64,000 bases of DNA from Candidatus Poribacteria bacterium (GCA_965214095.1 OZ243938.1:3200001-3264000); one strand, 5' to 3'. Shown: positions 28,967-60,255, numbered from the stretch's first letter. Numbers and translations are program-made. Notes: generated by a model from the letters alone, not told the origin.

Positions 28967-28994
28967 TGCACCCGTTTTGCCGTTCCACGCGTCA
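28967..28994 (+). promoter_or_regulatory. ECF-type promoter of array gene 1 (TGCACCC-N16-CGTCA)
   Basis: Motif recurs before all nine intact sigma genes. Confidence 0.7.
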
Positions 28995-29045
28995 CTAATG
29001 GTTGAGAAGAAAAATCCGATAGATTCTTTTTTATGGAGGAATCCA

Positions 29046-32000
29046 ATGAAAAACGAAGATGCAGAACTGATTCAACGCACGGTTGCTGGTGATGATACTG
29101 CCTTCTCAGAATTGGTGAAGAAATATCAGAGACAAGTTCATGCACTTGCATGGCGGAAAACAGGGGATTTTCACACAGCTGAAGATATTACACAAGACAC
29201 ATTCCTCAAGGCATATCAGAGACTCCACACACTCAAGCAACCCCACAGATTCGCAGGATGGCTTTATGTCATTGCAAATCGTCAATGTCTTGCATGGTTT
29301 CGGCAAAAACGTCTGAACAAGCAAACATTAGAGAACATAGACACACCCGATGCTAATAGTGATGCATACTCAAGACATATCGTAGAGGAACAAGCAAAAA
29401 CTGCTGAACAGGAACAGCAGGAAGTCGTCAAGAAGTTGCTTGAGACGTTGAAAGAGAGTGATCGTACCGTCATCACCTTACACTATTTTGCTGAAATGAC
29501 GTGTGAACAGATGAGCGAGTTTTTGGGTGTATCCGCAAACACAATAAAGAGCAGACTACGCCGCGCACGGAATAGATTAAAACAGGAGGAACCGATGATC
29601 CGAGAAGCAATTACAAACTTCAAAATATCTCCAACACTTACTGAAAATATAATGCAAGATGTTTCACGGATCAGTCCTACTACCCCATCAGCAAGCAAAC
29701 CTTTGATCCCGTGGATGATAGGTGCTACGGGTGCAGTATTGATTGTGCTGATGTTTGGGATTGGTGGTCAGTTCTTAGCACAATTCCAAAAACCGTATAG
29801 TTTAGATGCTCAAGCTGAAAGGACGGTTGAACTTATTGACGCGCCAATTGTTCAAAACCTTCAGATAGAATCAGATAACCGAAACCAAACAGGGAATAGA
29901 ATTGCTTTAGAAGGTAGTAATGATGGCAATGAAGAGAATGCAAATCAGACTATAGGTGATGGTGACTACACTAAATTGAATCTACCAGAAGGAGCAAAAC
30001 GAAGGTTAGGCAAGGGAGTGCTGTCCGATATGAAGATCTCCCCTAATGGCACACACATTGCAATTGCAAGTTCCTCTGGTATTTGGCTATACAATGTCAA
30101 TGCAAAACAGGAAATGAAACAGTCAAAGATTGCGTTACTTACTGGACATGAAGGTGTCGTTAGGCAGTTGACTTTTTCACCTGATAGCAAAATGTTTGCC
30201 AGTATTGGTTTAGACAAGACACTCCGACTTTGGGAATCCACTACCGGAAAACTCCTATTCACGTTGACCACCCCTAAACCTACAGGTGAATTTCGTGCCG
30301 TGAAGTTCATAAGAGATGGTAAAATCCTCGCTGGACGTTGTTCGGATGACTATAAAGTCTATCTATGGGATGTTACAACAGGAAAATATTTGGAATCATT
30401 TCGTCCGAAACTTCCTATGATTAGATTAGGACAGAACAGAAATTGGCAGTTTGCTACAGACGCTTTTTTCGATCCTATCGGTAACATCATGTTTGCGGTT
30501 GGAAATAAAGACGGTACGATTAGTATTCAAGAGGGGCGTACCGGTCTTGAGAAAAATAGACTTGTTGGGTATACAGATGAATCTCAATTTTTCAAGGTGG
30601 ATAATGAACATGATCGTCTTAACCCAAGAAAACCTACAGTGAGAAGATCTTTAGTCCATCCGGGTGATAAACTCTCTGTTCCAAAACAACTAAAAGCTGA
30701 CGGAACTCCTTTTCCTATCCAATACCTGTTGTCTGATCAAAATCATTCCAGTCATAATTATGAAAAAATACCTACAAAATGGATAAATACCTTAGATTTT
30801 TCACCCGATGGTAATACTCTTGTCAGTAGAAGTAAATACATGGTCGGACAAGAATCAGGTGCTTTATTTGGCGGAGGTCCAACTGAAATCTGGGATGTTG
30901 AAACAGGTGAACAACTTTCGTCGCTCACTTTGTGTGTTACGGATGTAGAAATTTCAGGTGATGGAAAAACACTTGCTATCACCGGTGATGGTGGTGTTTC
31001 TGTATGGGATATTCCTACACGGCAGGAGATTGCGGTGTTTAACGATGCAGTAAAGGTTTTATTTTCTGGTAATGGAAAAACACTCATCATTATAGAACAT
31101 GAACGTTATATATTATGGGACATCACTACCAGACGCGATATTAGTTCTGTCAATCTTGTCGGCGAGTCGTTTACTCCTTTTTTAGATCATTTTGGTATAT
31201 CACATGATGACACGATGTTTGCTACCACAGATACAACTGGCAAAGTAAATGTGTGGGAAACAAGAACTAGCACGCAACTTCGAACGTTCACAACAGGTTA
31301 TACAGATTCTATCACGGGTTTAATGTTTACAGATGATGGAAAAACTCTCATTAGTGGGACTTCTGCTGGAAATATCGAATTCTGGGATACAAACACCGCC
31401 AATATAAGGTCAAGGATTAAAACAGATAAAAGAAGTATAGATGGGTTGATGCTTTCCACAGAGGATAACACTACATTAACTGTGATGAGTAATAGTGATC
31501 TAATGCGATGGGATGTATCCACAGGCCAATTGATTGATGCCTACACCATATTGAATGCAGGCAACTGGTTCGGCAGTGAATTGTTGGAGGATGGAACACA
31601 AATACGTATGAAAGCATTCAGTTTCACGCCAAACGGTGAAAGATTGACTACACCAAATTCTAAAACCAAAATGATTGATGTTTGGGATATTACTGAAGGT
31701 AAGAATCCGCGCCTTCTCACAACAATTGAGTATGAAAGGGGTCCCATATTGCTTTCTCCTGATGGAGCGATACTCGCGAGCACGAGTAAATCAAACAACG
31801 CTGCTGATTTATGGATTACTTACACTAGTGAAAAGTTTTCTAAAATCAGTTTTCCTGAAAATATGCTTGATAGACACAACCACATTTATTCCTTGGCATT
31901 TTCTCACGATGGAAAAACATTTGTTGGTGGCACGAAGAAAAGAGAAATACATTTGTGGAATTTTGCCAGGTCCGAACACATTGGAATACTCAAGGCACAT

Positions 32001-32252
32001 AAGCACGTAGTATGTGCATTAAAGTTTTCACCTGACAATACCATCCTTGCAAGCGGAGATACAGGTGGCGGAATTTGCTTGTGGAAAATCCCCGATAGAA
32101 CTCTTCTCTCTCAATATAAATCGTCTGGTGGATATGTAAGTGAGTTAGCATTCTCGCCTGATGGAAAAACCCTCGCAAGCACAAATGGCGCAAGCACAAT
32201 AGCTAAAAACCCTGGTGGAACGATATACTTATGGGATGTGCCAACAAAATAA
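29046..32252 (+). CDS. Array gene 1: ECF sigma + TM + WD40 propeller (1068 aa)
   Basis: sigma2 'AEDITQDTFLKAY...FAGWLY', sigma4 'LGVSANTIKSRLRRAR', TM 'PWMIGATGAVLIVLMFGIGG', WD40 'FSPDG...LWD'; SD GGAGG. Confidence 0.9.
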   Translation: MKNEDAELIQRTVAGDDTAFSELVKKYQRQVHALAWRKTGDFHTAEDITQDTFLKAYQRLHTLKQPHRFAGWLYVIANRQCLAWFRQKRLNKQTLENIDTPDANSDAYSRHIVEEQAKTAEQEQQEVVKKLLETLKESDRTVITLHYFAEMTCEQMSEFLGVSANTIKSRLRRARNRLKQEEPMIREAITNFKISPTLTENIMQDVSRISPTTPSASKPLIPWMIGATGAVLIVLMFGIGGQFLAQFQKPYSLDAQAERTVELIDAPIVQNLQIESDNRNQTGNRIALEGSNDGNEENANQTIGDGDYTKLNLPEGAKRRLGKGVLSDMKISPNGTHIAIASSSGIWLYNVNAKQEMKQSKIALLTGHEGVVRQLTFSPDSKMFASIGLDKTLRLWESTTGKLLFTLTTPKPTGEFRAVKFIRDGKILAGRCSDDYKVYLWDVTTGKYLESFRPKLPMIRLGQNRNWQFATDAFFDPIGNIMFAVGNKDGTISIQEGRTGLEKNRLVGYTDESQFFKVDNEHDRLNPRKPTVRRSLVHPGDKLSVPKQLKADGTPFPIQYLLSDQNHSSHNYEKIPTKWINTLDFSPDGNTLVSRSKYMVGQESGALFGGGPTEIWDVETGEQLSSLTLCVTDVEISGDGKTLAITGDGGVSVWDIPTRQEIAVFNDAVKVLFSGNGKTLIIIEHERYILWDITTRRDISSVNLVGESFTPFLDHFGISHDDTMFATTDTTGKVNVWETRTSTQLRTFTTGYTDSITGLMFTDDGKTLISGTSAGNIEFWDTNTANIRSRIKTDKRSIDGLMLSTEDNTTLTVMSNSDLMRWDVSTGQLIDAYTILNAGNWFGSELLEDGTQIRMKAFSFTPNGERLTTPNSKTKMIDVWDITEGKNPRLLTTIEYERGPILLSPDGAILASTSKSNNAADLWITYTSEKFSKISFPENMLDRHNHIYSLAFSHDGKTFVGGTKKREIHLWNFARSEHIGILKAHKHVVCALKFSPDNTILASGDTGGGICLWKIPDRTLLSQYKSSGGYVSELAFSPDGKTLASTNGASTIAKNPGGTIYLWDVPTK

Positions 32253-32376
32253 CCAAAATAATCCTATAGTCATAGAATTGGCATAAGTTATTTGAGGGGT
32301 GTGCATAAATATATTATGTGCCAACATTGGTAGCGTCTCTCATCTTAAGGAGAATTACGCGTTATTCCGCGTGACG

Positions 32377-32591
32377 GTAGGTTCGGTTTCCTAACCGAAC
32401 CGGATCTTCCGCGAAAACCGTCTATCAAAGATTTTGGCGCAAACCCGGTTCGGTTAGGAAACCGAACCTACCGGTCCTGGCAGGACACTAAATTGACGGC
32501 CATGGTGCGGATCGGAAACCGTACCAACCGTCTTGGGGCATTTAGCATTTGTGAAAAAGACACAAGAAAAACCGAAAAATAAATAAACCTG
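32377..32591. repeat. REP cluster (3 family-1 units) with MITE ends
   Basis: GTAG REP at 32377, inverted copy ending 32471, degenerate third copy; ends CTAAATTGACGGCCATGG and AAATAAATAAACCTG. Confidence 0.75.
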
Positions 32592-32609
32592 GTAGGTAAT
32601 CCTAACATA

Positions 32610-32637
32610 TTGACAAACTGCTTCAATCTGCTAAAAT
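32610..32637 (+). promoter_or_regulatory. Sigma70-type promoter of the sigma-less array gene 2
   Basis: TTGACA-N16-TAAAAT with extended TG; similar to 35064-35091. Confidence 0.6.
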
Positions 32638-32686
32638 ATGTCCAGAGCATATCTCATCCGGCAACTTCCAATTTTCACCGAACCTT

Positions 32687-35017
32687 ATGGAGATTATTAT
32701 GCAAGAAGTATCACGACTCACACCTACTGTCCTTCCAGGAAGCAAACCTATAATCCCTTGGGTGATATGTGCTGCAAGTGCGTTGTTGATTACATTGATG
32801 TTTAGTATTAGCAGTAGCAGTTTTGGCAATGAAGAGAATGCCGATCAGGTATTAGGTGACCAAGGTGATTATACCCGATGGAATTTACCGATAGGAGCAA
32901 AACGAAGACTCGGTAAAGGAATGTTTACCGATATGCAGCTTACACAGGATGGAAACAGATTGGCAATTGCAAGTTCTGCAGGAATCTGGCTTTATGATGT
33001 GAACACGGGACAAGAAACCGCGCTGCTTACAGAAAATGCTGATTTAATTGGGTTAGTTGCATTTTCTCCCGATGGTAAAACCCTCGCAAGTACTGGCGGG
33101 AACAACACTTGTCGAATCTGGGACGTTGAAAAACAGGAACTTCTATTAACATTTAAACTGCCAAATTATTGGATGCGTTCCATAAGATTTTTGGATGATG
33201 GGAAAACGCTTGTTGGTGAAGGATTTATTGACGACAAGTCACACACACTAACTGGAAAAAAACTAAGATGGGACATTCCGAAAGTCTGGATGTGGGACAG
33301 TAGTTCTGGCAGATTGTTAAATACTTTCACGACTAAATTGCCGAAATTTGATTTGCTAACAGATGCAAGAAGCAGTGTACCATTTGAAGGATTTTCTAAC
33401 GGTTCCCGTTCCCTATTCGCTTATGATAATAATGAGTATGAGACTATCGTAAAGGATGGAATCACAGATCAAGAGATATTCACAATCCCCCGCACTGGAC
33501 AAGAGATAAGAGAATTTGTTTTCTCCCAAGATGGCAAACAACTTGCAATTGCTTATGACAGGAGTGTACATCTCTGGGATATTGGTTTTGATTCAGGTAA
33601 TCAGAAAGCGATATTTCCAATTCACATTGCTAATTTCTCTAGAGATGCCTCTATACTCTCTTTTTCAAGGGATGGAAAGATACTTGCTGCTGCTATCGGC
33701 AAAGGTATTACTGTATGGAATGTTGAAACAAGCTCACACATTACTACATTTATGAATGCTAAAGGTGGCTTATGGGAATTTGTGTTATCTGCTGATGGGT
33801 CAACTGTTGTTACAATGGATTATCAAGGGACAGTAGATTTTTGGTCGGTTACAAATGACAGACATGAACGCACCTTGACGACTGGTTATTCAGGTGGATT
33901 CACCAGTTTGACGTTTGCTCATGATGGAAAAACTGTTGCGACCACTGCTCTTGGAAAAATCCATTTATGGAATGCTGACACTGGCACTGAAAAGTTGCAT
34001 CTACAAATACCAATGTATAGGGAAATTAAGAACAAATATTCCGAATGGCATACCCGTGGTGCCGTTGTACCTGCAGATATTAGAGGAGATATTATCAGCC
34101 TTGCTTTCTCGAAAAATAACAGCACGGTTTACACTCTCAATATATCAGGGAAAATTGGGGTTTTGGATGTTAACACTGGTAACTATCGTATTTCTAACAT
34201 TCTTGCAGACGTTGCTACCGTCAAATTTCTACCATATCATTCAAGTCCATTAACCAAAGGAGGAGCCAGAGTCCCTACACCTAGGACACCAAATATATAC
34301 CACCTCGTTGCAACATCCTACGACAGTATTTCAGTGTTTATCCGCGCAGCCGCTTTCTCGTCTAATGGAGAGTTATTAGCAACCAAAAATCAAGAAGGGT
34401 CAGTTGAGGTTTGGGATCTTACTATCCCAAGACGTATATACACACTTGCAGCGCAAAATCCAAATGTGAAAGATAATCCTGCGATTATAACTGAATTTAC
34501 AGAAGATGGAAAATTGCTTGCGATCCGTGATGGCATGGATATTCACTTGTCAGATGTCCATTCTGGTGAAACCTTAGTAAAATATAAGATACCTGAAAAG
34601 AAACCAAATATTATAGACAAATTTATGTCAATATTTGGTCCAAAAGAAGTCATTCAGAAAATTGACGCAGTAGCTTTGGCACAGGGAGGAAAAAACATCT
34701 TAGCTGCAAACGACAATAAGACAATCTATCTGTGGGATATTGTAACACATGAACGTATCTTAACAATTAGGGATCATAAACACGCAGTATGCAAGTTAGC
34801 ATTTACAAACGATGCAACAATACTTGCGAGTGGAGATGTAAGTGGGGTAATCCATCTATGGGTTATTCCAACGGGAGAGAAACTTGCTACATATAAACCG
34901 TATGCAAGTCCAATTACCCAATTAGTTTTTTCACCTGATGGAAAGACCCTTGCAACTGAGAATTTGTATTCTCACCTTTCAGGAACTATACTGCTATGGG
35001 ATGTCCCCTCCAAATAG
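32687..35017 (+). CDS. Array gene 2: sigma-less paralogue (anti-sigma-like helix + TM + WD40)
   Basis: Starts within the 'NFQFSPNL-MEIIMQEVSR' motif; keeps TM 'PWVICAASALLITLMF'; sigma2/sigma4 and most of the linker absent; frame open for 776 aa. Confidence 0.7.
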   Translation: MEIIMQEVSRLTPTVLPGSKPIIPWVICAASALLITLMFSISSSSFGNEENADQVLGDQGDYTRWNLPIGAKRRLGKGMFTDMQLTQDGNRLAIASSAGIWLYDVNTGQETALLTENADLIGLVAFSPDGKTLASTGGNNTCRIWDVEKQELLLTFKLPNYWMRSIRFLDDGKTLVGEGFIDDKSHTLTGKKLRWDIPKVWMWDSSSGRLLNTFTTKLPKFDLLTDARSSVPFEGFSNGSRSLFAYDNNEYETIVKDGITDQEIFTIPRTGQEIREFVFSQDGKQLAIAYDRSVHLWDIGFDSGNQKAIFPIHIANFSRDASILSFSRDGKILAAAIGKGITVWNVETSSHITTFMNAKGGLWEFVLSADGSTVVTMDYQGTVDFWSVTNDRHERTLTTGYSGGFTSLTFAHDGKTVATTALGKIHLWNADTGTEKLHLQIPMYREIKNKYSEWHTRGAVVPADIRGDIISLAFSKNNSTVYTLNISGKIGVLDVNTGNYRISNILADVATVKFLPYHSSPLTKGGARVPTPRTPNIYHLVATSYDSISVFIRAAAFSSNGELLATKNQEGSVEVWDLTIPRRIYTLAAQNPNVKDNPAIITEFTEDGKLLAIRDGMDIHLSDVHSGETLVKYKIPEKKPNIIDKFMSIFGPKEVIQKIDAVALAQGGKNILAANDNKTIYLWDIVTHERILTIRDHKHAVCKLAFTNDATILASGDVSGVIHLWVIPTGEKLATYKPYASPITQLVFSPDGKTLATENLYSHLSGTILLWDVPSK

Positions 35018-35137: not shown

Positions 35138-35166
35138 TGCACCCGATTTGTACCTAACCCGCGTCA
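35138..35166 (+). promoter_or_regulatory. ECF-type promoter of gene 3 (TGCACCC-N17-CGTCA)
   Basis: Recurrent motif. Confidence 0.7.
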
Positions 35167-35226: not shown

Positions 35227-38200
35227 ATGAAAGACAATGACGTTGAATTAATCCACCGCATCCTTGAAGGTGATGATTCTGCTTTCTCCACCTTAGTTGA
35301 GAAATATCAGAAGCAGGTTCACGCACTTGCATGGCGTAAAATCGGTGATTTCCATATTGCCGAAGATATAACACAGGACACCTTCCTGAAAGCATATCAG
35401 AAACTCACGACACTTAAGAACCCGCAACGATTCGCAGGATGGCTCTATGTGATTGCAACACGTTGCTGCCAAGCATGGCTACGCAAAAAACAGATACAGA
35501 CCGAATCGTTAGAAGAAATTGATAGTGATGCGTTAGAACCTGAGGCATATTCACGATATGTTTCTGAGGAGGAGACGAAAGTAACCGTTGCAGCACAACG
35601 TCAAGTCGTCAAGAAACTCCTTGCAACATTGCCTGAGAGTGAACGCACGGTGATAACATTACACTACTTTGGTGAGATGACGTGTGAAAAGATGAGCGAG
35701 TTTTTAGGTGTATCCGCGAACACAATAAAGAGCAGATTACGCCGCGCACGGAACCGTTTGAAACAAGAGGAACCGATGATCCGAGAAGCAATTACGAACT
35801 TCAAAATATCTCCAACACTTACTGAAAATATAATGCAAGAAGTATCACAGATCAAACCTACTCCCCCTTCAGCAAGCAAACCTTTAATTCCGTGGATGAT
35901 GGGTGCCGCAGGGGCAGTATTGATTGCACTGATGTTTGGTATAGGTGGCCAGTTCTTAGCACGTTTCCAAAAACCGTATAGTTTAGATGCTCAATCTGAA
36001 AGGACGGTTGAACTTGTAGATGCACAGGTTGTTCAAAACCTTCAGATAGAATCTGACAACAGAAATCAAACAGGGATGCGATCCGATTTAGGTGGTAGAA
36101 GTAATGGCGATGGAGAGAATGCGGAACAGGCTTTAGGGGACCAAATCGATTACACACGATGGAATTTGCCGATGGGGGCAAAACGGAGATTCGGAAAAGG
36201 AATATTGAACGACATGGAGCTTTCACCTGATGGCAGAACAATTGCAAGCAAAGGGTATCGTAGAACAATTTGGCTATGGGATGCGGAAACGGGTGAACAC
36301 TTGCGTACAATCAAGGTGCCAAATGCTCCAGCCACAGGTTATCAATTTTTTAAAAATGGCACTATGGAAACAACAGTTATTCCTCTTAGTCAATACAATC
36401 CTGACGATGACAGAGCTTCAATTATAGGTTTTAGCGGTTTTAATAATAAAAAAACCAAAGCTGCATACATTGTTTCCTCCGGTCCACTCAGATCAATTGA
36501 ATTCTTAGCAGACAGTAAAACTCTTATGACTCAGAATTTGGATGGTACTGTCTGGTTATGGGATATCACTTCAGGAGAACAGAAAGCATTATTTCGTCCA
36601 GAACTACCTGGATTGAAACTTGATAGTTACATAAGTTGGGTTAATCTTTATCCTGATCAATGGCGGCTGGCGGCTGATGTCTATTTTGCTCCTTCAGGTG
36701 AAGTTATTTATGCTCTCGCTGCGGGAGATAGAATTGGTACAATTTACATACAAGATGGACACACTGGTAAACTATTACGCACACTGGAGGGACAAAGTAA
36801 AATTATAAGCAAAAAAAATACCATAGGTCGAATAGGTTATGGACAAAAAACACCTATTCAAAGTCGCTTGCAAATTCCGGGAATAAAAGATGTCTTTTCA
36901 GGTAAGGAACCTCGGCGAGGCGTGGAATGGATAACAGAATTATATTTTGCGCCAGATGGCAAAACACTTGTGAGTAAAAGCCGATTCAGAAACAGTAATA
37001 GGAGTAGTTATAGTGGTGCCGTTGAACTTTGGGATGTTAAAACAGGTGAACTGCTAACAAGACATGGATTGGGCACAGATTTAAAGTTCTCAGGAGATGG
37101 AAAAGCACTCGCATTTATGAATGGGGTGGGAAGAGGGTACAAGGGATGTGTGATATGGGATCTTGCAGATCGTCGTAAAATTGCTGAATTTGCGGGTAAG
37201 GTTGACCTAAAGTTTTCAAGAGATGGGAAAACATTCACTATTATACGGAATGACAGTTTAGAGATGTGGGATATCGCGACGCGTCGCAAAATCACATCAA
37301 TGAGTACACCTCCAGAACTGTTGACAGTTCTTCCAGACCGGCATGCATTTTCAGGAGATGGTACAATCTTTGCTGCTGTAAATAGATACGGCACAGTCAA
37401 TTTATGGGAAACACAAACTGACACACAACTACGCACCCTCACTACAAACTATTCAACACCAATTACTACGATGGCATTCACACACGATGGCAAATCGCTT
37501 GTAAGTGGGAACGCTTCCGGCAACATTCAACTCTGGAATTTAAACACTGGTAAAGTAAGCAGCACACTAACATCACCTGAAAACAAGTCTATTTATGGAT
37601 TAGTTTTTGCAGAGGACAATGCCACACTCGTCAGTGGAGGCATAAGAAACTTTGATAAATGGAATATTACCACTGGAAAAAGAGTTAACACTTACACTCT
37701 ACAATGGGCAGTGGCACAAGTTTTTAGCAGTACCTCTCATTATGGTATTGGGAGTTCAGGCGATACCGTCTTTACATGGCCCACTACGATTATAGCATTG
37801 ACCCCAAAAGGCGGAAAAATCGCCAAAACTATTTGGTCTTCACATGAAAGAAAAACTGAGGAAGATGGAAGTGAGATTAAGGTATGGGATATTCCGACTA
37901 GCGAACACCTATGTACCGTAACAAATGAATCTTTTGGTCAAACGTTAGCATTCACATCCGATGGAAATATGTTCGCTACTTTGGATGAGGATATATCATA
38001 CACTGTAGATGAACATACTGGTAAGAAAGTTGGAGATTTTAATAAATGTATAGTGTACTTATGGGACACATATACTGGCAAAAAATTAGCAGCATTTGAC
38101 GTGCCGAAGGATCCAGAAAATAACTTCAATCGACCTGATATTTATGCTGGAGTTTTTACACGCGACAGCAAAACGTTTGCTGCTGCTGGGAGTTTTGGAG

Positions 38201-38526
38201 ACAATTCAATCTTTTTATGGGATATTAAAACAAAGACGCATTTCGCAACGCTCAGAGGACATGGACACGTTGTTTGCAGATTGACAGTTTCACCGGATGA
38301 TACTATTCTTGCCAGTGGGGATTCAAATGGTGAAATTCGTTTGTGGAAAATACCTTCAGGTGAACATCTCGTTACATTCCAATCGCCTGGTGGACACATT
38401 AGCAATATTACATTTGCACCTGATAGTAAGAGTTTCGCAAGCACAAATGGTCGTTCAGATGGCGTATCTTCTAATTCCAGAGAAGGTGGAACCATATTCC
38501 TATGGGATGTGCCAAATGTAAAGTAA
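35227..38526 (+). CDS. Array gene 3: ECF sigma + TM + WD40 propeller
   Basis: Same architecture as gene 1; sigma4 'LGVSANTIKSRLRRAR'. Confidence 0.9.
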   Translation: MKDNDVELIHRILEGDDSAFSTLVEKYQKQVHALAWRKIGDFHIAEDITQDTFLKAYQKLTTLKNPQRFAGWLYVIATRCCQAWLRKKQIQTESLEEIDSDALEPEAYSRYVSEEETKVTVAAQRQVVKKLLATLPESERTVITLHYFGEMTCEKMSEFLGVSANTIKSRLRRARNRLKQEEPMIREAITNFKISPTLTENIMQEVSQIKPTPPSASKPLIPWMMGAAGAVLIALMFGIGGQFLARFQKPYSLDAQSERTVELVDAQVVQNLQIESDNRNQTGMRSDLGGRSNGDGENAEQALGDQIDYTRWNLPMGAKRRFGKGILNDMELSPDGRTIASKGYRRTIWLWDAETGEHLRTIKVPNAPATGYQFFKNGTMETTVIPLSQYNPDDDRASIIGFSGFNNKKTKAAYIVSSGPLRSIEFLADSKTLMTQNLDGTVWLWDITSGEQKALFRPELPGLKLDSYISWVNLYPDQWRLAADVYFAPSGEVIYALAAGDRIGTIYIQDGHTGKLLRTLEGQSKIISKKNTIGRIGYGQKTPIQSRLQIPGIKDVFSGKEPRRGVEWITELYFAPDGKTLVSKSRFRNSNRSSYSGAVELWDVKTGELLTRHGLGTDLKFSGDGKALAFMNGVGRGYKGCVIWDLADRRKIAEFAGKVDLKFSRDGKTFTIIRNDSLEMWDIATRRKITSMSTPPELLTVLPDRHAFSGDGTIFAAVNRYGTVNLWETQTDTQLRTLTTNYSTPITTMAFTHDGKSLVSGNASGNIQLWNLNTGKVSSTLTSPENKSIYGLVFAEDNATLVSGGIRNFDKWNITTGKRVNTYTLQWAVAQVFSSTSHYGIGSSGDTVFTWPTTIIALTPKGGKIAKTIWSSHERKTEEDGSEIKVWDIPTSEHLCTVTNESFGQTLAFTSDGNMFATLDEDISYTVDEHTGKKVGDFNKCIVYLWDTYTGKKLAAFDVPKDPENNFNRPDIYAGVFTRDSKTFAAAGSFGDNSIFLWDIKTKTHFATLRGHGHVVCRLTVSPDDTILASGDSNGEIRLWKIPSGEHLVTFQSPGGHISNITFAPDSKSFASTNGRSDGVSSNSREGGTIFLWDVPNVK

Positions 38527-38789: not shown

Positions 38790-38818
38790 TGCAACCGTTT
38801 TCCTCCTTAGTCGCGTCA
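38790..38818 (+). promoter_or_regulatory. ECF-type promoter of gene 4 (TGCAACC-N17-CGTCA)
   Basis: Recurrent motif. Confidence 0.7.
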
Positions 38819-49028: not shown

Positions 49029-49057
49029 GGTAACCTTTTTGCATATATCTTGCGTCA
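49029..49057 (+). promoter_or_regulatory. ECF-type promoter of gene 7 (GGTAACC-N17-CGTCA)
   Basis: Recurrent motif. Confidence 0.7.
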
Positions 49058-52100: not shown

Positions 52101-52126
52101 ACTATAATCTTGATAATAATAAGTAG
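49106..52126 (+). CDS. Array gene 7: ECF sigma + TM + Asp-box propeller
   Basis: Sigma domain nearly identical to gene 5; different propeller. Confidence 0.9.
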   Translation: MKNEDVAIIQRILADDETAFAELVKKYQKAVHTLAWRKIGDFHIAEDITQDAFLKVYQKLHTLQDPNQFAGWLYVITTNLCSTWLRKKRIQTKRLEDAETMMAQRDAYSEHVTGDTTKTAVETQREVVKKLLTKLKESERTVMSLHYLGEMKIEEISRFLGVSTSTIKSRLRRARNRLQKEETLIREALEHFQLSPNLTENIMQEVSRLKPTPTGSKPLVPWAIAATSAVLIVLLLGIGSQNLVRFQKPFSLDAQAEMTVELVDTPIVLNLDAKPDVRNQLGSINPAGDSENEGQKPDEVLLAAAETEEEDKVSNPKQQWIQENGPIGHGYLLTYFPTPEGQIYIVYNEGRDYKLYKLPERETEFQHISDITSNSVTYFDSIFMVKLNNTLYFVGSNELNELFASTDGGVTWHSVGKCPDGWIYGFEVIDDRFYLVIEHKIFVSEDTGKTWSILDKGLPWEVNTLEVIQNTLYAATNKGLYHLHGGSWQPLQFPITEAKAIVSFAGTEKYLYVLTVWDWKNVGPQGRTWWLFRSTDKGQSWTDITPTNALPIMGSEPFEELPEATLVAVKNTVLLIGLSGAAVFRSIDNGDTWTLKNTNDISVMSNSVRNAVAVDENTFYLQGYSGFYRSIDGGLSWKRFNPGMKGAIVDLINVKKNRVQNSSNSLYAMFTGGLQNQWVFESSDKGKSWHVVNPEIQTQEQIPSFTWIAESGGALYAKGQGPTSWAIIGLYRISEDRNMLVPIKGIPVISSSTLLHLLNTTKRGPNFDLSYDAFVEQLQESSVGAAQFFKQLAQTNPRNADGSFRRSGLRGTFAVSGDTFYMEHNYKLFRWEPSDTEWYDTGQEETVRLTWDVIRRDLKLAVSDDTVYVGKRDGHLVVSLDKGNNWIDLTSALPFSVKTFNDIVFVGNTVYVATDAGIAASGRGNNWGAITDAEGTNLIMEILTVDGTILYGVTKDTGIYRLENGTWNQIVSEIPENITSLAVDGNTLYVGTQDQGMLHYNLDNNK

Positions 52127-52176: not shown

Positions 52177-52348
52177 CCATAAGCGTCAATTTAGCGTCCT
52201 TTCAGGAACGGTAGGTTCGGTTTCCTAACCGAACCGGTTTTGTGCCAAATACCTTCATAGAGGTTCTCGCACAGGTTCCGTGCGGTTAGGAAACCGCACC
52301 TACCGGCCTGGGGAAAACGCCTAATTTACACTAAATTGACGCCTATGG
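52177..52348. mobile_element. Second MITE type (TIR CCATAAGCGTCAATTTAG) carrying a REP doublet
   Basis: Left CCATAAGCGTCAATTTAGCGT and right ACACTAAATTGACGCCTATGG match at 19/21; a second REP doublet follows to 52438. Confidence 0.65.
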
Positions 52349-52613
52349 TTCGGTTTCCTAACCGAACCGGTTCCTACGCGAAAACTTTATATCAACGGGA
52401 TCGGCACAAATCTGGTGCGGTTAGGAAACCGAACCTACCGTCTTGGGAAATTCAGCATTTGCAAAAGAATTCAGCATTTGCAAAAGAAAGGACAAGAAAA
52501 ACCGAAAACTAAATAGTCCTGCTACGACTAACTCATCCTTGACAAACCCACCTGATTTGGTAGAATAGTATTTCACTGTTTCCGACCAACCAATCTGTCC
52601 ATCTGCAGAATTA

Positions 52614-52642
52614 TGCACCAGTTTTATCCGTAAGTCGCGTCA
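52614..52642 (+). promoter_or_regulatory. ECF-type promoter of gene 8 (TGCACCA-N17-CGTCA)
   Basis: Recurrent motif. Confidence 0.7.
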
Positions 52643-52666: not shown

Positions 52667-55600
52667 ATGCAAAAAAACGACGTAGAACTCATTCATCAAA
52701 TACTTGATGGTGATGATACTGCTTTCACCGAACTTGTGACAAAATATCAGAAGTCTGTTCATGCACTGGTATGGAAAAAAATTGGTGATTTCCACATCGC
52801 TGAAGAGATAACACAAGATACATTTCTGAAAGCGTATCAGAAATTAAGCTCACTCAAGAGTCCGCAACGTTTCGCCAGTTGGCTCTATGTGATTGCCTCA
52901 CGACGTTGTCTTGCATGGCAACGAAGAAAACGTATATTGACAAAGTCTTTGGAAGAAACAAACAGCGCACAGATTGAAAAAGCAACATATTCACAATATG
53001 TTGTTAATGAAAATATGCGCATAACTGCAGAAACACAACGCGATGTCGTTAAGAAGTTGCTTGCCAAATTACCTGAAAGTGAACGCACGATAATCACATT
53101 ACATTACTTCAGTGAGATGTCCAGTTCAGAAATTGGGGCATTTTTAGGTGTATCGGCAAACACGATTCGGAGTCGTCTACGTCGGGCACAGCAACGTCTA
53201 CAGAAGGAGGAAACAATGATTAGAGAAGCACTCGACCATTTCAAACTCTCACCGAACTTCACCGAAAATATCATGCAAGAAATATCACGTCTCAAACCTA
53301 CACCTTCCGCCAGCAAACCCTTAGTGCCGTGGACAGTTGCTGCTGCAAGTGCGGTCTTAATAGTGTTGATGCTTGGTATAGGCAGTCAGAACTTAGTCCG
53401 TTTTCAGCAACCTTACACATTAGATGCGCAAGCTGAAACGACAGTGGAACTTGTTGACACCCCTATTGTGCTAAATCTTGATACGAAACCAGATGTCCGA
53501 AATCAATTGGGGAACTCAAATGCGTTGGGTATAAGTGAGAACGACGGTCAGAAACCAAATGAAGTTTTGTTAGCTGCCGCAGAAACTGAAGATGAGGACA
53601 AGGTATCTACTTCTAAACAGCAGTGGATTCAATCTGAACCTATCATTGGAAGTGCTGTGGAAAATTTATTTGCTAGTGATAAAGGAGAACTCTACACTGT
53701 TCTTGATGCACACATATACAAATGGCAAGACAATAATACAGGATGGCAACAGTTGAGTGGTGACATCAGAGATTATCATGATAGACTGAATGAAACTACA
53801 ATTATAACGGATGTCCCTATAGCAAAGTGGGACAATATCCTTTACATTGCTTTAGAAAATTTACTATTGGCGTCAAGAGATGATGGCAAGACATGGAAAA
53901 CAGTTCATGAATGGCAACCTGATTATAGACACCCACGTGAATTGGTCCTGACTGAACAAGCGTTTTGGGTGAGTCATAACAGGGGTGTTTTCCGTTCTGA
54001 GGACAAAGGAAATACATGGCAAGAGGTAGACGTTGAGTTAATTCAGGGTCCCATTTTCTTAATAGCTATACAAAACACAGTATTTGCTGGATCATACACT
54101 GGGTTGTATCGTTGGAACACCAGCAGCTGGGAACGGGTAGAATTACCGGTAGCTGAGGCATTATTAGTCTACAAAGCCGCTGCCGCTAAAGAGCGTTTGT
54201 ATGTATTAGCATTTTTAGGTTATGATTTCTATGACGATAAAGCAATCCGAGAGGGACGACAACGGACATGGTGGATATTCCGATCAGATGATTTAGGAAA
54301 CTCGTGGAAAGATATTACACCGACAAATGCTTGGCCCCTAAAAGCCGAGGCTCCAGAGATCCAACTTGTTGCTGCTGGCGAAACAATTATGTTGATGGGA
54401 AAGGGTATTGTGCGTTCTATTGATGGAGGAGATACGTGGTTACCCTTTCAAAGACCTAACACTCTCCCTACAAATATAAAGTATTACTGGCCTTCTGTGG
54501 CATTAAATGAACATGTATTTTACGCTATAGGGAGAGGTCTGCACCGTACCACTGATGGTGGCAAAACATGGAGTAAGGTAAATATCACTCCGAATAGGAG
54601 ATGGCATGGAATACAGAACTTACTCGTGCATAAGCCGAAAGAAAGAATAGAAAACAGCCAGCCGACTCTTTATGGGACAGCAGGAATTGGCATAGTAAAA
54701 ACTACTGACGAAGGTAAGTCTTGGAAGCAGATTCAGGTAGAAATACCTTTGGACACTTCTGTAAGAGAAGACCAACCATCCATTATTCAGATGGTCAAAT
54801 CCGATGGTGTTCTCTATGCAAAAGGTAGCAGTGATTACCCAATCGGGGAATTGCGTTTCTATCGCGTCTCTGAAGATGATAACACATTAGTTTCTATTCA
54901 AGGCATACCGACATTCGACTCAAGAGAATTAAAGGAGTATTTACGCCAGTCTCAAAATCCCTCTTTAGAAGAGCTTCAAAAAAGGTTTTCGGGAGCAACC
55001 CAATTCTTTAAATGGTTGCTCCAAAGTACTCCGCATCAACAGGATATGCTCATCCGAGATGGATTTCGAGGGCAGTTTACAGTCAGTTCTAACACGTACT
55101 ATTCGGAATACAATTATAAACTTTTCCGATGGGAACCTGGAGATACAGAATGGAAGGACATCGGACAAGAAGAGACTTCTTCCAAGACATGGGGACATCT
55201 CAAATTGGCTGTTTCAGGAGACACAGTCTATGTCGGAAAACGGGATGGTCATCTTCATGTATCGTATGATAAGGGAGACAATTGGATTGACCTCACCCCA
55301 GCACTCCCATTTCCTGTTAGATTCTTCAAAAAGATTATGACTGCTGGATCTACTGTTTATGTAGCAACGGACGCAGGTATCCTTACATCAGATGATGGGA
55401 GAAATTGGCGAGTCGTAGCGGATACAGAAGGAAGAAACCTCATCATGGAAGAATTAGCAGTTGACGGCACAACTCTCTATGGAATTACTCAAGATACAGG
55501 AATCTATCGTTTAAAGAGTGATAGTGATACTTGGAAACAGATTATAGCAGAGATACCGGAAAGTGCAAAAGTCAATTTAACGTCAAATGGAACTTCTCTT

Positions 55601-55672
55601 GCTGTTGATGGAAGGACTTTATATCTTGGTACACAATTTGAAGGTATGCTTCGTTTTACGCTTGAAGAATAA
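52667..55672 (+). CDS. Array gene 8: ECF sigma + TM + Asp-box propeller
   Basis: sigma4 'LGVSANTIRSRLRRAQ'; SD GGAGGT. Confidence 0.9.
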   Translation: MQKNDVELIHQILDGDDTAFTELVTKYQKSVHALVWKKIGDFHIAEEITQDTFLKAYQKLSSLKSPQRFASWLYVIASRRCLAWQRRKRILTKSLEETNSAQIEKATYSQYVVNENMRITAETQRDVVKKLLAKLPESERTIITLHYFSEMSSSEIGAFLGVSANTIRSRLRRAQQRLQKEETMIREALDHFKLSPNFTENIMQEISRLKPTPSASKPLVPWTVAAASAVLIVLMLGIGSQNLVRFQQPYTLDAQAETTVELVDTPIVLNLDTKPDVRNQLGNSNALGISENDGQKPNEVLLAAAETEDEDKVSTSKQQWIQSEPIIGSAVENLFASDKGELYTVLDAHIYKWQDNNTGWQQLSGDIRDYHDRLNETTIITDVPIAKWDNILYIALENLLLASRDDGKTWKTVHEWQPDYRHPRELVLTEQAFWVSHNRGVFRSEDKGNTWQEVDVELIQGPIFLIAIQNTVFAGSYTGLYRWNTSSWERVELPVAEALLVYKAAAAKERLYVLAFLGYDFYDDKAIREGRQRTWWIFRSDDLGNSWKDITPTNAWPLKAEAPEIQLVAAGETIMLMGKGIVRSIDGGDTWLPFQRPNTLPTNIKYYWPSVALNEHVFYAIGRGLHRTTDGGKTWSKVNITPNRRWHGIQNLLVHKPKERIENSQPTLYGTAGIGIVKTTDEGKSWKQIQVEIPLDTSVREDQPSIIQMVKSDGVLYAKGSSDYPIGELRFYRVSEDDNTLVSIQGIPTFDSRELKEYLRQSQNPSLEELQKRFSGATQFFKWLLQSTPHQQDMLIRDGFRGQFTVSSNTYYSEYNYKLFRWEPGDTEWKDIGQEETSSKTWGHLKLAVSGDTVYVGKRDGHLHVSYDKGDNWIDLTPALPFPVRFFKKIMTAGSTVYVATDAGILTSDDGRNWRVVADTEGRNLIMEELAVDGTTLYGITQDTGIYRLKSDSDTWKQIIAEIPESAKVNLTSNGTSLAVDGRTLYLGTQFEGMLRFTLEE

Positions 55673-55736: not shown

Positions 55737-55764
55737 TGAGACTATTTCACCTCATACCGAGTCA
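55737..55764 (+). promoter_or_regulatory. Variant ECF-type promoter of gene 9 (TGAGACT-N16-AGTCA)
   Basis: Same position and spacing as the other motifs; repeated before gene 10. Confidence 0.6.
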
Positions 55765-55812
55765 TTAATATAGTGATGTCAATTGATGAATTTCCCTTAC
55801 CAGAGGTCTTCG

Positions 55813-58800
55813 ATGAAAAATGCTGATGTCGAACTCATCCAACGTGTCCTTGATGGCGATGATACTGCGTTCTCAGAACTAGTTAACAAATATCGCAAGT
55901 CTGTACACGCGCTTGCATGGCGGAAGGTTCAAGACTTCCATATCGCTGAAGATATCACACAGGAAACATTCCTAAAGGCATACAAAGGAATACCAACGTT
56001 GAAGGAACCGCAATCTTTTGCAGGTTGGCTATATGTTATTGCAACAAATCACTGTAATACTTACCTTGGTAAGAAACGTTTGCCGACTCAGTCTTTGGAA
56101 GATACCGATAATGAAGAGTTGGAAAAAGCAACCTATTCCAGCTATGTCAGTGCGGAAAACGAGCGGGTATCAGTAGAAACGCAGCGTGAAGTCGTCAAGA
56201 AGTTGCTTGCTAAGTTGCAGGAGAGTGACCGAACGGTCATCACACTCTATTACCTCGGGGGAATGACGTATGAAGAGATAAGCAAGTTTTTAGGTGTATC
56301 GGTAAGTGCAATCAAGAATCGACTCTACCGAGCGCGCCAGTTTCTAAAGAAGGAGGAACCTATGATAAGAGAAGCTTTAGAGAATTACCAAATCACTCCA
56401 AATCTCACTGAAAACATCATGCAAGAAATATCTCGTCTCAGACCTACACCTTCCACCAGCAAACCCTTAGTGCCGTGGGCAGTTGCTGCTGCAAGTGCAA
56501 TCTTAATAGTGTTGATGCTTGGCATAGGTAGTCAGAACTTAGTTCGTTTTCAGCAACCTTATTCATTAGATGCACAAGCAGAGATGACGGTGGAACTCGT
56601 TGACACACCTATTGTGCTAAATATAGATACGAAACCAGATGTCCGAAATCAATTGGGCAATACAAATGCATTGGGTATAAGTGAGAGTGAAGGTCAGAAA
56701 CCAGATGAAGTCCTGTTGGCTGCCGCAGAAACCGATGAAGAAGACAAGGTATCCGTCCCTAAACAGCAGTGGATTCAGTCTGAACCTATCAAAGGAAGTG
56801 CTGTGAAAAATTTATTTTCTACCGATGCAGGAGAACTCTACACTGTTCTTGATGCACACATATACAAATGGCAAGACAATAAAACGGGATGGCAACAGTT
56901 GAGTGGTGACATCAGAGATTATCATGAAAAGTTGGATGAAACTATACTCATAACGAATGTTCCTATAGCAAAATGGGACAATACCCTTTATATTGCTTTG
57001 AGTAATTTATTTTTGGCTTCAAAAGATGATGGTAAAACATGGGATATAGTTCATTCATGGTCACCTGACAATTTTGGACCGCGTAACTTGGTGTTGACTG
57101 AACAAGCGTTTTGGGTGAGTCTTAACAGCGGTGTTTTCCGTTCTGAAGATAAAGGGAATACATGGCAGGAGGTAGATGTAGAATTATTTAGGGGTTCCAT
57201 CTTCTTTAAAGCCATACAAAACACAGTATTTGCTGGATCATACACAGGGTTGTATCGTTGGAACACCGGCAGCTGGGAACGTGTAAAATTACCGGTAGCT
57301 GAGGCATTAATAGTCCACGAAGTCGCAACCACTAAAGATCGATTGTATGTAATGGCATCATTAGGTCATGAATTTTATGATGATAAAGCAGTCCGGGAGG
57401 GACGACAACGGACTTGGTGGATATTCCGCTCAGATGATTTGGGAGATTCGTGGAAAGATATTACACCGACAAATGCTTGGCCCCTAAAAGCCAAGTCACC
57501 TGATATCCTACTTGCTGCTGCGGGTGCAACCATTATGTTGATGGGAAGGGGTATTGTGCGTTCTATCGATGGAGGAGATACTTGGTTGCCCTTACAAACA
57601 CCACCCACGCTATCTACAGTCAGGTTTTCTAAGCCTTCTGTGGCATTAAATGAACGCGTGTTCTATGCCATAGGAAGGGGACTACACCGTACTACTGATG
57701 GAGGCAAATCATGGAGCAAGATAAATATCACGCCGAATAGGAGACGGAGTGGCATACGCAACTTACTCGTGGATAAGCAGAATGAAAAAACGCAAAACAG
57801 CCAGCCGACTCTTTATGGGACAGCAGGAATTGGCATAGTAAAAACTACTGATGAGGGTAAATCTTGGAAGCATATTCAGGTAGAAATACCTATTGATATT
57901 CCTGTAAGAGAGGACCAACCCTGGATAACGCAGATAGCCAGTTCTGACGGTGTTATCTATGCCAAAAGTAGTAGTCATTACCCATTCGGAGAATTGCGAT
58001 ATTATCGCGTATCTGAGGATGGGAACAAGTTAGTTCCTATTCAAGACATGCCTACATTCGACTCAAGAGAATTAAAAGAGTATTTACGCAAATCTCAAAA
58101 TCCCTCTTTAGAAGAGCTACAAAAGAGGTTTCTGGGAGCAACACTATTCTTTAAATCGTTGATCCAAACAGATCCAGTCCAGTTACCTCAACGAACAAAG
58201 GATGCACTGATCCAAGGAGGGAATAATGGAACGTTTGCTGTTAGTGGTAATACGTTCTATATGGAATACAACCTAAAACTATTCCGATGGGAACCTGGTG
58301 ATACAGAATGGCAAGACATCGGACAAGAAGATACTTATCCAAGGACAGCGGAATATCTCCAACTGGCAGTGTCTGGGGACACCGTCTATGTAGGAAGAAG
58401 GAATGGACATCTTGTCGTGTCGTTCAATAAAGGAAATAACTGGATTGATCTTACACCGGGACTGCCGTTTCAGGTAAAATCTTATAAAGATATAGTTGTT
58501 GACGGAACCACGGCATGTGTAGCAACTAACGCAGGCACCCTTATATCGGACGATGGGAAAAATTGGCGAGTCGTCACAGATGCAGATGGAACTCATCTCA
58601 TTATGGAAGAATTGGCTGTTGATGACACAACGTTTTATGGAATCACTAAAGACACAGGTATCTATCGTTTAAAGAGTGATAGTGACACTTGGGAACAGAT
58701 TATCACAGAAATACCTGAAAGTGCAAAAGTGAATATAGCCGATAACGGAGCTTCTCTGGCTGTTAAGGGCAGCACCTTATACTTAGGTACACGAAGAAAC

Positions 58801-58830
58801 GGCATGTTTCATTTTACTCTTGAAGAATAA
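55813..58830 (+). CDS. Array gene 9: ECF sigma + TM + Asp-box propeller (1005 aa)
   Basis: sigma4 'LGVSVSAIKNRLYRAR'; propeller very similar to gene 8; SD GAGGT. Confidence 0.9.
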   Translation: MKNADVELIQRVLDGDDTAFSELVNKYRKSVHALAWRKVQDFHIAEDITQETFLKAYKGIPTLKEPQSFAGWLYVIATNHCNTYLGKKRLPTQSLEDTDNEELEKATYSSYVSAENERVSVETQREVVKKLLAKLQESDRTVITLYYLGGMTYEEISKFLGVSVSAIKNRLYRARQFLKKEEPMIREALENYQITPNLTENIMQEISRLRPTPSTSKPLVPWAVAAASAILIVLMLGIGSQNLVRFQQPYSLDAQAEMTVELVDTPIVLNIDTKPDVRNQLGNTNALGISESEGQKPDEVLLAAAETDEEDKVSVPKQQWIQSEPIKGSAVKNLFSTDAGELYTVLDAHIYKWQDNKTGWQQLSGDIRDYHEKLDETILITNVPIAKWDNTLYIALSNLFLASKDDGKTWDIVHSWSPDNFGPRNLVLTEQAFWVSLNSGVFRSEDKGNTWQEVDVELFRGSIFFKAIQNTVFAGSYTGLYRWNTGSWERVKLPVAEALIVHEVATTKDRLYVMASLGHEFYDDKAVREGRQRTWWIFRSDDLGDSWKDITPTNAWPLKAKSPDILLAAAGATIMLMGRGIVRSIDGGDTWLPLQTPPTLSTVRFSKPSVALNERVFYAIGRGLHRTTDGGKSWSKINITPNRRRSGIRNLLVDKQNEKTQNSQPTLYGTAGIGIVKTTDEGKSWKHIQVEIPIDIPVREDQPWITQIASSDGVIYAKSSSHYPFGELRYYRVSEDGNKLVPIQDMPTFDSRELKEYLRKSQNPSLEELQKRFLGATLFFKSLIQTDPVQLPQRTKDALIQGGNNGTFAVSGNTFYMEYNLKLFRWEPGDTEWQDIGQEDTYPRTAEYLQLAVSGDTVYVGRRNGHLVVSFNKGNNWIDLTPGLPFQVKSYKDIVVDGTTACVATNAGTLISDDGKNWRVVTDADGTHLIMEELAVDDTTFYGITKDTGIYRLKSDSDTWEQIITEIPESAKVNIADNGASLAVKGSTLYLGTRRNGMFHFTLEE

Positions 58831-59115: not shown

Positions 59116-60105
59116 ATGAAACGCACCTATATGTTGTTGGAAATGACACTCCTGTTCAGTTTGTTTCTGCTTACCGTAAATGCTTGGGGAGCTCAGTATA
59201 TTTCTTTCAGTTCTAACCGTACAGGGCAAAGCGATATCTACATCATTGATACAAACGGCAAGAATCTACGCAACCTAACAAACCATCCCGCAGAGGACAC
59301 TGGTGCTACGTGGGCACCGGATGGGCGTTCTTTTGCTTTTGCGTCGAACCGTGATGGAAATTATGAAATCTATATTAAGAAATTCAATGAAGCTCAGGCG
59401 CGTCGGTTGACACACCGTCCGGAAAACGATTTTGATCCTGTCTGGTCAGCTTTTTCTCCTGCCTGGTCACCTGATGGAGATTGGATTGCTTTTGTAGCCA
59501 AGAGAACAGGGGCATCTCATATCTACAAAATAGATATCAACGGTGAGAATCTACAGAGACTGACTAACCAAGGAGGTAGCCCAAACTGGTCTCCAGATGG
59601 AAAATCAATTGCTTTCGATGTTTTTGGGAGCGGTATCTATGTGATGGACGCAGATGGAAAAAATCCTAGACAGATTAAAATCCAGGTAAATATAATCGCT
59701 TTTATTTTCGATCCTGCTTGGTCGCCTGATGGAAAACAGATTGCTTGTGTTCTCGTTAATGAGGGGCAGGATATCTACATCATGGATACAGATGGACAAA
59801 ACGCCCGACGCATTTCACCTCTTGGGACTTGGAGCGTCAGGCCTGCGTGGTCTCCTGATGGTAAGTGGATTGCCTACCAGGCCGACGATGCAGAAAATGC
59901 GAATCCTCAGGGAAACCCGAATGCGGAGCGACACATTTTTATCGTTTCTGTTGAGGGGGATGAGCCACGGCAAATCACACAAGATCCTGTGCGAAATTCT
60001 TCTCCCGCCTGGATCCCCGGAAGTTTTTTCTCCGTTTCTCCGACTGTGAACACCCAGACAACCCTCTGGGGTCGGTTGAAACAAGCTGAACGTATGACGC
60101 AATAA
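59116..60105 (+). CDS. Secreted TolB-like (PD40) beta-propeller
   Basis: Signal peptide, repeated 'PAWSPDG', C-terminal 'SVSP...TTLWGRLKQ'; SD AGGAGG. Confidence 0.85.
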   Translation: MKRTYMLLEMTLLFSLFLLTVNAWGAQYISFSSNRTGQSDIYIIDTNGKNLRNLTNHPAEDTGATWAPDGRSFAFASNRDGNYEIYIKKFNEAQARRLTHRPENDFDPVWSAFSPAWSPDGDWIAFVAKRTGASHIYKIDINGENLQRLTNQGGSPNWSPDGKSIAFDVFGSGIYVMDADGKNPRQIKIQVNIIAFIFDPAWSPDGKQIACVLVNEGQDIYIMDTDGQNARRISPLGTWSVRPAWSPDGKWIAYQADDAENANPQGNPNAERHIFIVSVEGDEPRQITQDPVRNSSPAWIPGSFFSVSPTVNTQTTLWGRLKQAERMTQ

Positions 60106-60227
60106 AGATAATCACGGTTCACCATGAGGAGTATACCTAACAATGAGCAAAACCGGTTCATTCAGAAAATGGAACATCACTGTTCTTAGTATAAGTCTTC
60201 TGCTCTTTCCTCTTTTTTGAAAAAACT

Positions 60228-60255
60228 TGAGACTATTTCGCCTCATACCGAGTCA
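60228..60255 (+). promoter_or_regulatory. Variant ECF-type promoter of gene 10 (TGAGACT-N16-AGTCA)
   Basis: Near-identical to the gene 9 motif. Confidence 0.6.

Follow-up and report, generated by a model that had tools for sequence, protein, structure and literature searches.

Sigma factors with extracytoplasmic function (ECF) are known to autoregulate, and a residue-base code for their promoter specificity has already been published (Todor 2020, PMC7776599; here and below, the cited papers are used in excerpt). In the structure of sigmaE region 4 (sigmaE4) with -35 DNA, S172 contacts position -34, F175 contacts -33, R171 contacts -31 and -32, R176 contacts -35, and Y156 contacts the downstream backbone (PMC1540707), and the S172/-34 and R171/-31 pairs have been tested by saturation mutagenesis (PMC7776599). 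Fusions of sigma factors to membrane segments and WD40 extensions are known as well, from IutY and ECF52 (PMC8999054) and from ECF57 (PMC7826278). Here, we examine a stretch of 64,000 nucleotides (nt) from Candidatus Poribacteria bacterium (GCA_965214095.1 OZ243938.1:3200001-3264000), referred to at its full length as the window, in which ten paralogous genes encoding proteins of ~1000 amino acids (aa) each occupy 29046-63331 on the plus strand. Nine of the ten carry an N-terminal ECF sigma domain according to Pfam, gene 2 being the exception, and behind this domain come a conserved linker of ~40 residues, a single hydrophobic segment at about aa 222-240, and beta-propellers.

We think it probable that the promoter of each gene is recognized by the gene's own sigma domain or by that of a paralogue of the same class, and that the -35 element and the sigma4 helix-turn-helix have diversified together. 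This reading is built on the observed domain architecture, the promoter anatomy, and a family-wide covariation that falls on known contact residues. As the sequence-only reading of the window had claimed, a bipartite site of the ECF type precedes all nine sigma-bearing genes, and its -10 is GCGTCA except in genes 9 and 10, which have GAGTCA. All sites are on the plus strand, and distances are counted between the first base of the -35 heptamer and that of the -10 hexamer. The promoter of gene 1 (28967-28994; matrix score, 42.9) has TGCACCC, a distance of 22, and its -10 at 28989; that of gene 3 (35138-35166) has the same heptamer, a distance of 23, and its -10 at 35161. Genes 4 (38790-38818; -10 at 38813) and 6 (45653-45681; -10 at 45676) both have TGCAACCG at a distance of 23, the distance also found before gene 5 (42251-42279; GGCAACCT; -10 at 42274), gene 7 (49029-49057; GGTAACCT; -10 at 49052), and gene 8 (52614-52642; TGCACCA; -10 at 52637). 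TGAGACT at a distance of 22 precedes gene 9 (55737-55764; -10 at 55759) and gene 10 (60228-60255; -10 at 60250). The gene 4 promoter lies 169 nt 5' of its ATG, and the remaining eight lie 30 to 66 nt 5' of theirs.

These sites are specific within the window. A degenerate pattern, composed post hoc when the sites had already been seen, matches exactly the nine promoter sites, compared to 0.97 +/- 0.96 matches in shuffled sequences, none of 100 shuffles reaching nine. A weight matrix whose training set came mostly from other genomes returns the same nine and no others on either strand of the 64 kb, including none before gene 2. Their anatomy consists of an AAC-type -35 followed by a T-run, a spacer of 15 to 16 nt, and a CGTC-type -10; spacers of this length and a CGTC -10 are typical of ECF promoters. 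An AAC motif with a T-rich region downstream is likewise described for the ECF promoter type (PMC1540707). Each site is thus a bipartite AAC-type -35/CGT-type -10 element upstream of its own gene on sequence evidence, which supports regarding the nine as putative ECF-type promoters matched to the adjacent sigma.

A survey of related loci places the window in a larger family. A scan of one genome per species gave at least 626 pattern matches, of which at least 597 were confirmed, and 64 loci were analyzed, 60 of them titled Poribacteria and 4 titled "uncultured bacterium." A profile of the sigma-linker-membrane part gave 189 matches in these loci plus the window, with 170 unique full sigma domains. 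A promoter scoring 19 or more precedes 140 of the 170 members (coding DNA scores -2 at most), and 14 further members have the same architecture with GCATC[AT] as the -10, bringing the total with a promoter to 154. In most members, the site is at a nearly constant 50 to 57 nt from the start codon. Searched on both strands, 1.2 Mb contains 156 matrix hits above 15, and 142 of them lie within 350 nt 5' of a family sigma domain. The other 14 comprise 4 before family genes (one of them sigma-less), 7 before unrelated open reading frames (ORFs) no shorter than 176 aa, which include one PD40 protein, a related pair of secreted proteins of ~280 aa, and three larger proteins that are secreted or unassigned, and 3 with no convincing ORF within 300 nt.

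The survey also yielded candidate targets beyond autoregulation. High-scoring promoters at L004 ~5604, L025 ~4168, L061 ~2594, L018 ~13089, and L036 (minus strand) ~14585 precede non-sigma genes, whose products are two related proteins of ~280 aa that are secreted, a protein of 269 aa, a secreted protein of 801 aa, and a protein of 2026 aa. In the window itself, the array is interrupted at 59116-60105 by a gene for a PD40/TolB-like secreted protein; since a weak ECF-like site (score, 19.7) lies before its homologue at L054 ~3473, this gene is a possible regulon member. Across all classes, an AGAATT box in the 8 nt immediately 5' of the -35 and a TTT run in the 3 nt immediately 3' of it are conserved (118 to 130 of 140 promoters); the TTT run fits the ECF type, and the AGAATT box is unexplained.

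Family-wide, there are 11 different -35 cores and 29 classes defined by six sigma4 residues, and the core can be predicted from these six in 147 of 154 cases. The sequence-only reading had proposed a readable sigma-promoter code, but such a code has already been published for ECFs in general. For numbering, sigma4 was aligned by HMMER and without gaps to the sigmaE4 chain of 2h27, so that a column equals the RpoE residue number minus 3, and the promoters were aligned on their AAC motifs, so that p2 to p8 correspond to -35 to -29 (p3 = -34, p4 = -33). Coincident changes were then counted on a FastTree tree of 306 branches made without the helix-turn-helix columns, with IQ-TREE providing a second tree. 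On the FastTree tree, changes at -34 coincide with changes at column 169 (S172) on 7 of 10 branches (P = 2e-8), and changes at -33 coincide on 7 of 8 branches with column 172 (F175; P = 1e-9, as on the other tree) and also with column 169 (P = 1e-9). Those at -32 coincide on 5 of 5 branches with column 165 (G168; P = 7e-7, top rank), and those at -30 coincide on 6 of 11 with column 153 (Y156; P = 4e-6). Control promoter positions reach only ~2e-4 at best. With IQ-TREE, the -34 and -33 links hold (P = 7e-8, 6e-10, and 1e-9), the first of them on 6 of 8 branches.

In the tables of residue-base pairs, tyrosine at column 172 occurs with G in 19 of 19 cases, while arginine, glutamine, or histidine occurs with A in 116 of 116; asparagine at column 165 goes with C (62 of 63), serine at column 153 with A (26 of 26), and tyrosine there with T (23 of 23). 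At column 168, lysine accompanies C[CT] in all 110 cases, and arginine accompanies CA in 26 of 30. Taken together, the equivalents of S172, F175, G168, R171, and Y156 change along with promoter positions -34, -33, -32, and -30 in these alignments. All promoters of sigmas with tyrosine or histidine at column 172 also use the shorter distance of 22 rather than 23, and 14 of these have GCATC[AT] together with methionine at column 83.

A second series of associations concerns the -10 and sigma2. Alanine at column 83 is found with C just 5' of GCGTCA in 74 of 74 cases, threonine mostly with T (33 of 53), and methionine with GCATCA in 14 of 14, and column 83 and the -10 change together on 8 of 18 branches (P = 5e-7, IQ-TREE). 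Judged solely by the end points of the alignment, column 83 is probably the equivalent of RpoE N84. Because GCATCA needs only two changes on the tree, the pairing with methionine rests on very few events. Column 83 is a better partner for the -10 than the one proposed from the window, where GAGTCA had been linked to the sigma2 loop 'LKEPQSF'. That link was rejected: the loop goes with GCGTCA in 12 of 14 proteins and with GAGTCA only in genes 9 and 10, and GAGTCA is present in 3 of 140 promoters.

The division of the window into four classes of region 4.2 helix and -35 fares differently. The region 4.2 strings, as well as the loop shared by genes 9 and 10, had been quoted correctly, and the pairings stand as described (genes 1, 3, and 8 with TGCACC followed by C or A; 4 with 6; 5 with 7; 9 with 10), but the family divides them otherwise. 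Lysine versus arginine at column 168, plus cysteine versus serine at column 153, separates TGCACCC from TGCACCA; therefore, gene 8 falls outside the class of genes 1 and 3. Conversely, the second class (genes 4 and 6) and the third (genes 5 and 7) have the core GCAACC in common and consistently differ only at the base 5' of it, which is T in 16 of 16 and A or G in 21 of 21.

Several points weigh against matched, co-diversified sigma-promoter pairs and against the signaling model that we attach to them. The classes sharing GCAACC may cross-talk, judging from that common core, and genes 5 and 7 have an identical helix with one -35 base different (C or T at -34). Further exceptions are VNTIKT, which pairs with AGAAACC, and four 'SPNTVKS' members, which have asparagine at column 165 with a candidate TGCAACC. 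No promoter was detected for 16 of the 170 members, which include one truncated by the end of its locus, three short 'SASTVKSRLRR' proteins, two preceded by hardly any intergenic DNA, and the four 'SPNTVKS' members with their weaker TGCAACC-N16-CTGTCA candidate. The pairs at columns 165 and 153 depend on the tree, since with IQ-TREE column 165 is outside the top three for -32 and column 153 reaches only P = 2e-3 for -30. The effective number of sequences is ~18 at 80% identity, and single-trait independent-pair tests yield 1 to 3 supported pairs (p >= 0.25) and have no statistical power. No FecR-like, zinc-finger/ZAS, or RskA anti-sigma family was found in the linker by Pfam at E <= 0.01. Finally, start sites, autoregulation, and membrane release are features that we infer from the DNA.

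The simplest alternative is that promoter and 5' end were copied together, such that the match between -35 and helix reflects shared ancestry and no recognition. The classes do largely follow clades, genes 5 and 7 as well as genes 9 and 10 are recent duplicates (sigma domains 98% and 87% identical), and the independent-pair tests just mentioned count in its favor, even though among the pairs listed, 1 to 3 per test, the second trait never changed in the opposite direction. However, the largest class (n = 34; sigma domain identity, 73%) combines an invariant -35 heptamer (100% identity) with a spacer of 53% and flanks of 40 to 46% identity; when classes are compared with each other, identity is 64% at the -35 and 93% at the -10. 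Moreover, at each variable -35 position it is columns of region 4.2 and not of sigma2 that share the most mutual information, although region 4.2 is ~500 nt more distant from the promoter. In close relatives with sigma2 domains 92 to 95% identical, a change of C to A at -34 is accompanied by S to T at column 169. Since the -35 is fixed within a class while spacer and flanks drift, since the distant region 4.2 predicts the promoter best, since the co-changes gather at published contact residues rather than at arbitrary clade-marking columns, and since S-to-T and C-to-A go together even in close relatives, the match exceeds what co-duplication provides; the family alignments support its tracking region 4.2. 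Gene 8 illustrates this, as it is only 63 to 64% identical in nt to genes 1 and 3 in region 4.2, no more than to the other classes, but keeps GCACC and the ANT helix. We therefore regard co-duplication as the whole explanation as decidedly unlikely.

Alternatively, the sites could be real ECF promoters read promiscuously by one or few sigmas of the family, with the -35 differences being tolerated noise. The C or T accepted at -34 by genes 5 and 7, the GCAACC shared by two classes, and the -10 and AGAATT/T-run flanks present in all classes can be understood in this way, and the sigmaE structure shows no base-specific contacts at -30 and -29 (PMC1540707). Such noise is hard to reconcile with -35 cores that are class specific and invariant over many genomes, and in other ECF sigmas, replacement of a single residue at the S172 or R171 equivalent shifts specificity drastically (PMC7776599), so that we hold promiscuity to be rather improbable. 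It is also conceivable that the motif is the binding site of another regulator or a recombination-linked sequence at a cassette boundary and no promoter for these sigmas at all. In genes 5 to 8, the left boundary of the divergent cassette does coincide with the -35, and the conserved AGAATT just 5' of it has no explanation; but the anatomy is that of the ECF type with its AAC and T-rich region (PMC1540707), the distance to the start codon is nearly constant in most members, and the covariation involves DNA-contact residues of the sigma, which leaves this idea very little credence. Recognition by the cognate or same-class sigma, with co-diversification of both sides, thus remains our preferred reading.

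In the sigma-bearing proteins, Pfam assigns aa 23-89 to Sigma70_r2 and aa 127-178 to Sigma70_r4_2, in addition to Sigma70_ECF, and the matches to PF04542, PF08281/PF04545, and PF07638 span aa 7-182, comprising, as in ECF (group 4) members of the sigma70 family, only the sigma2 and sigma4 regions and neither region 1 nor region 3; Sigma70_r3 is absent from the complete Pfam hit lists of genes 4 to 10. The best solved relatives are all ECF sigmas (SigW, SigE, and RpoE), the nearest being Bacillus subtilis SigW (E = 1e-24), with Escherichia coli RpoE next (E = 9e-15). AlphaFold2, run with 86 sequences, models sigma2 and sigma4 confidently, puts linker helices at 182-189 and 198-209 (predicted local distance difference test [pLDDT] values of 69 to 82), and gives a helix at 228-236 in the membrane part with low confidence. 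The proteins are thus fusions of a sigma domain, a membrane segment predicted from the conserved hydrophobic stretch, and propellers, which Pfam assigns to WD40 in genes 1 to 3 and to a BNR/Sortilin-Vps10-like type in genes 4 to 10.

All ten genes are on the plus strand. Gene 1 (29046-32252; 1068 aa) encodes the ECF sigma domain, the short linker, one hydrophobic segment, and WD40 propellers, and gene 3 (35227-38526) encodes another sigma-membrane-WD40 fusion. Gene 4 (38982-41912) begins the series with BNR/Sortilin-type propellers, followed by the sigma-membrane-propeller fusions of gene 5 (42328-45315), gene 6 (45731-48694), gene 7 (49106-52126), gene 8 (52667-55672), gene 9 (55813-58830), and gene 10 (60302-63331). 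The promoter positions imply shorter starts for genes 1, 6, and 9, at ATG 29046, ATG 45731, and ATG 55813, and these also fit the alignment of the paralogues; for gene 1, the listed TTG at 28977 would overlap the promoter. Gene 2 (32687-35017) is a sigma-less paralogue that begins past the sigma domain and consists of a linker remnant, the membrane segment, and WD40. Sigma-less paralogues are present at further Poribacteria loci (L008 ~8465, L013/L055 ~8538, L063 ~7465, and L006 ~7146); the one at L008 sits between a gene 1-like and a gene 3-like gene, as gene 2 does in the window, and the one at L006 retains a TGCACCC-type ECF promoter. Because such forms recur at other loci, gene 2 is probably a maintained form and not a fresh pseudogene.

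The array has been assembled as a mosaic. Genes 5 to 8 share upstream DNA, as had been noticed from the window, with 90 to 100% identity from about -176 to -90 and 50 to 80% from the -35 on, a divergence that lasts until sigma4 ends (nt 540). It is back at 87 to 100% identity that the linker and membrane part (nt 542-950) starts, with values below 60% following in the sensor part. The shared upstream DNA contains, by sequence match, a sigma70-type promoter-like site, TTGACA-16-TAGAAT with TG, at 42176-42203 on the plus strand, with identical copies at 45578-45605, 48954-48981, and 52539-52566, each ~50 nt 5' of the ECF -35. The total number of such sites in the window is not above chance (54 versus 44.3 +/- 6.3), and only these four copies are noteworthy. 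Elsewhere in the array, genes 5 and 7 are 98% identical in the sigma domain and 49% in the C-terminal part, genes 8 and 9 are 62% and 76% identical, and genes 9 and 10 are 87% and 47% identical, by which measure the sigma and sensor parts differ in history. Given these unequal identities, the "promoter plus sigma" unit appears to behave as a cassette, and most of the four or five specificity classes that the window would hold are common to two or three genes with different sensors. A repeat of ~40 nt lies ~55 nt past the stops of genes 4 to 7 (41972, 45376, 48750, and 52183, plus strand), and intergenic spaces (32253-32686 and 52214-52237) are filled by inverted repeats of the GGTTCGGTTTCCTAACCGAACC type; from their form, these look like a small dispersed repeat element.

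Putting these features together, each of the nine sigma-bearing genes probably encodes a one-polypeptide signaling protein in which an N-terminal ECF sigma is joined through the ~40-residue linker and a membrane segment to a large extracytoplasmic propeller sensor. The sigma would be kept inactive at the membrane until regulated proteolysis frees it once the propeller senses its signal, a tethering and release that we propose by analogy with IutY, ECF52-type hybrids, and the proposal for ECF57. A Pfam scan of the 20 ORFs of at least 150 aa at 1181-28742 brought up no protease gene. The freed sigma would increase transcription from its own promoter and from those of paralogues in its class, an autoregulation for which the covariation at contact residues is indirect support, creating a signal-gated positive feedback, and the upstream sigma70-type promoter may provide basal expression.

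More tentatively, and with somewhat less than even confidence, we suggest that Poribacteria have hundreds of sensor-membrane-sigma switches, in which at least 11 -35 cores arose through one to three contact-residue changes while promoter-sigma cassettes and sensors were exchanged by recombination, giving insulated channels with several sensors each. With at least 597 confirmed stretches, the signaling family looks abundant in sponge-symbiont genomes. The ECF code had been worked out from sigmas only remotely related to one another, whereas one young family makes it legible here down to single residue-base pairs, such as S, N, T, or L at the S172 position with C, A, or T at -34 and, for the F175 position and -33, Y with G as opposed to R, Q, or H with A. 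The family thereby offers a minimal set of natural sigma/promoter pairs on which to study how paralogues become insulated, and it touches a question left by the ECF reclassification, namely, whether many copies of the same group in one organism are redundant (PMC7826278). It could also yield compact orthogonal parts for synthetic biology.

Two features of the window lie outside the array. A homologue of Ro60/TROVE with a vWA domain is encoded at 20001-21707 on the minus strand, and Rfam finds no Y RNA and no other RNA family in the window. An IS605 OrfB/TnpB-like gene with a Cas12f-like TNB domain occupies 7792-9375 on the plus strand.

Among known systems, the closest in architecture are IutY of Pseudomonas putida (ECF243) and ECF48, ECF52, and ECF53 (e.g., SCO4117), which likewise join a sigma, a membrane part, and an extracytoplasmic sensor and for which release is proposed (PMC8999054). 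Unlike IutY and ECF52, the Poribacteria family has no FecR-like or zinc-finger domain detected by Pfam, a linker of ~40 residues, and a propeller as sensor. ECF57 resembles it in having C-terminal membrane helices, WD40-like propellers in some members, several copies per genome, and a proposed release (Casas-Pastor 2021, PMC7826278). That group is 100% Planctomycetes, however, with about two membrane helices, a fully conserved Cys pair, and promoter motifs described as "not conserved" (PMC7826278). Membership in ECF57 was considered and appears unlikely, as 60 of the 64 loci here are titled Poribacteria and the Cys pair of sigma2 and sigma4 is not kept, the sigma2 Cys (column 81) being present in at least 90% and the sigma4 Cys (column 153) in 41 of 140. 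In contrast to ECF57, the Poribacteria family has one hydrophobic segment and strongly conserved promoters. In the sigmaI systems of cellulolytic clostridia, the anti-sigma sensor is reportedly a separate protein. Their paralogues similarly provide many alternative sigmas per genome, used for carbohydrate sensing, but belong to a different sigma group (PMC10575876).

The specificity side follows the logic of the published ECF code (PMC7776599; Lane and Darst 2006, PMC1540707), in which the equivalents of S172, F175, R171, and R176 pair with -34, -33, -31, and -35, and a sigma2 residue, probably the N84 equivalent (column 83), is likewise paired with the -10 at its upstream edge. Columns 165 and 153 (the G168 and Y156 equivalents), which covary here, are not among the tested pairs in the excerpted text of PMC7776599. 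In literature searches judged by title or abstract, we found nothing in print on a Poribacteria sigma-membrane-propeller family, and the word "Poribacteria" is absent from the main text and the excerpted supplement of PMC7826278. Unlike the published code, the Poribacteria case concerns a single family of tandem paralogues in an uncultivated phylum, with sigmas 52 to 98% identical and 11 cores. Thus, what is new compared to the known systems is the Poribacteria sigma-membrane-propeller family itself, its specificity radiation, and its mosaic build.

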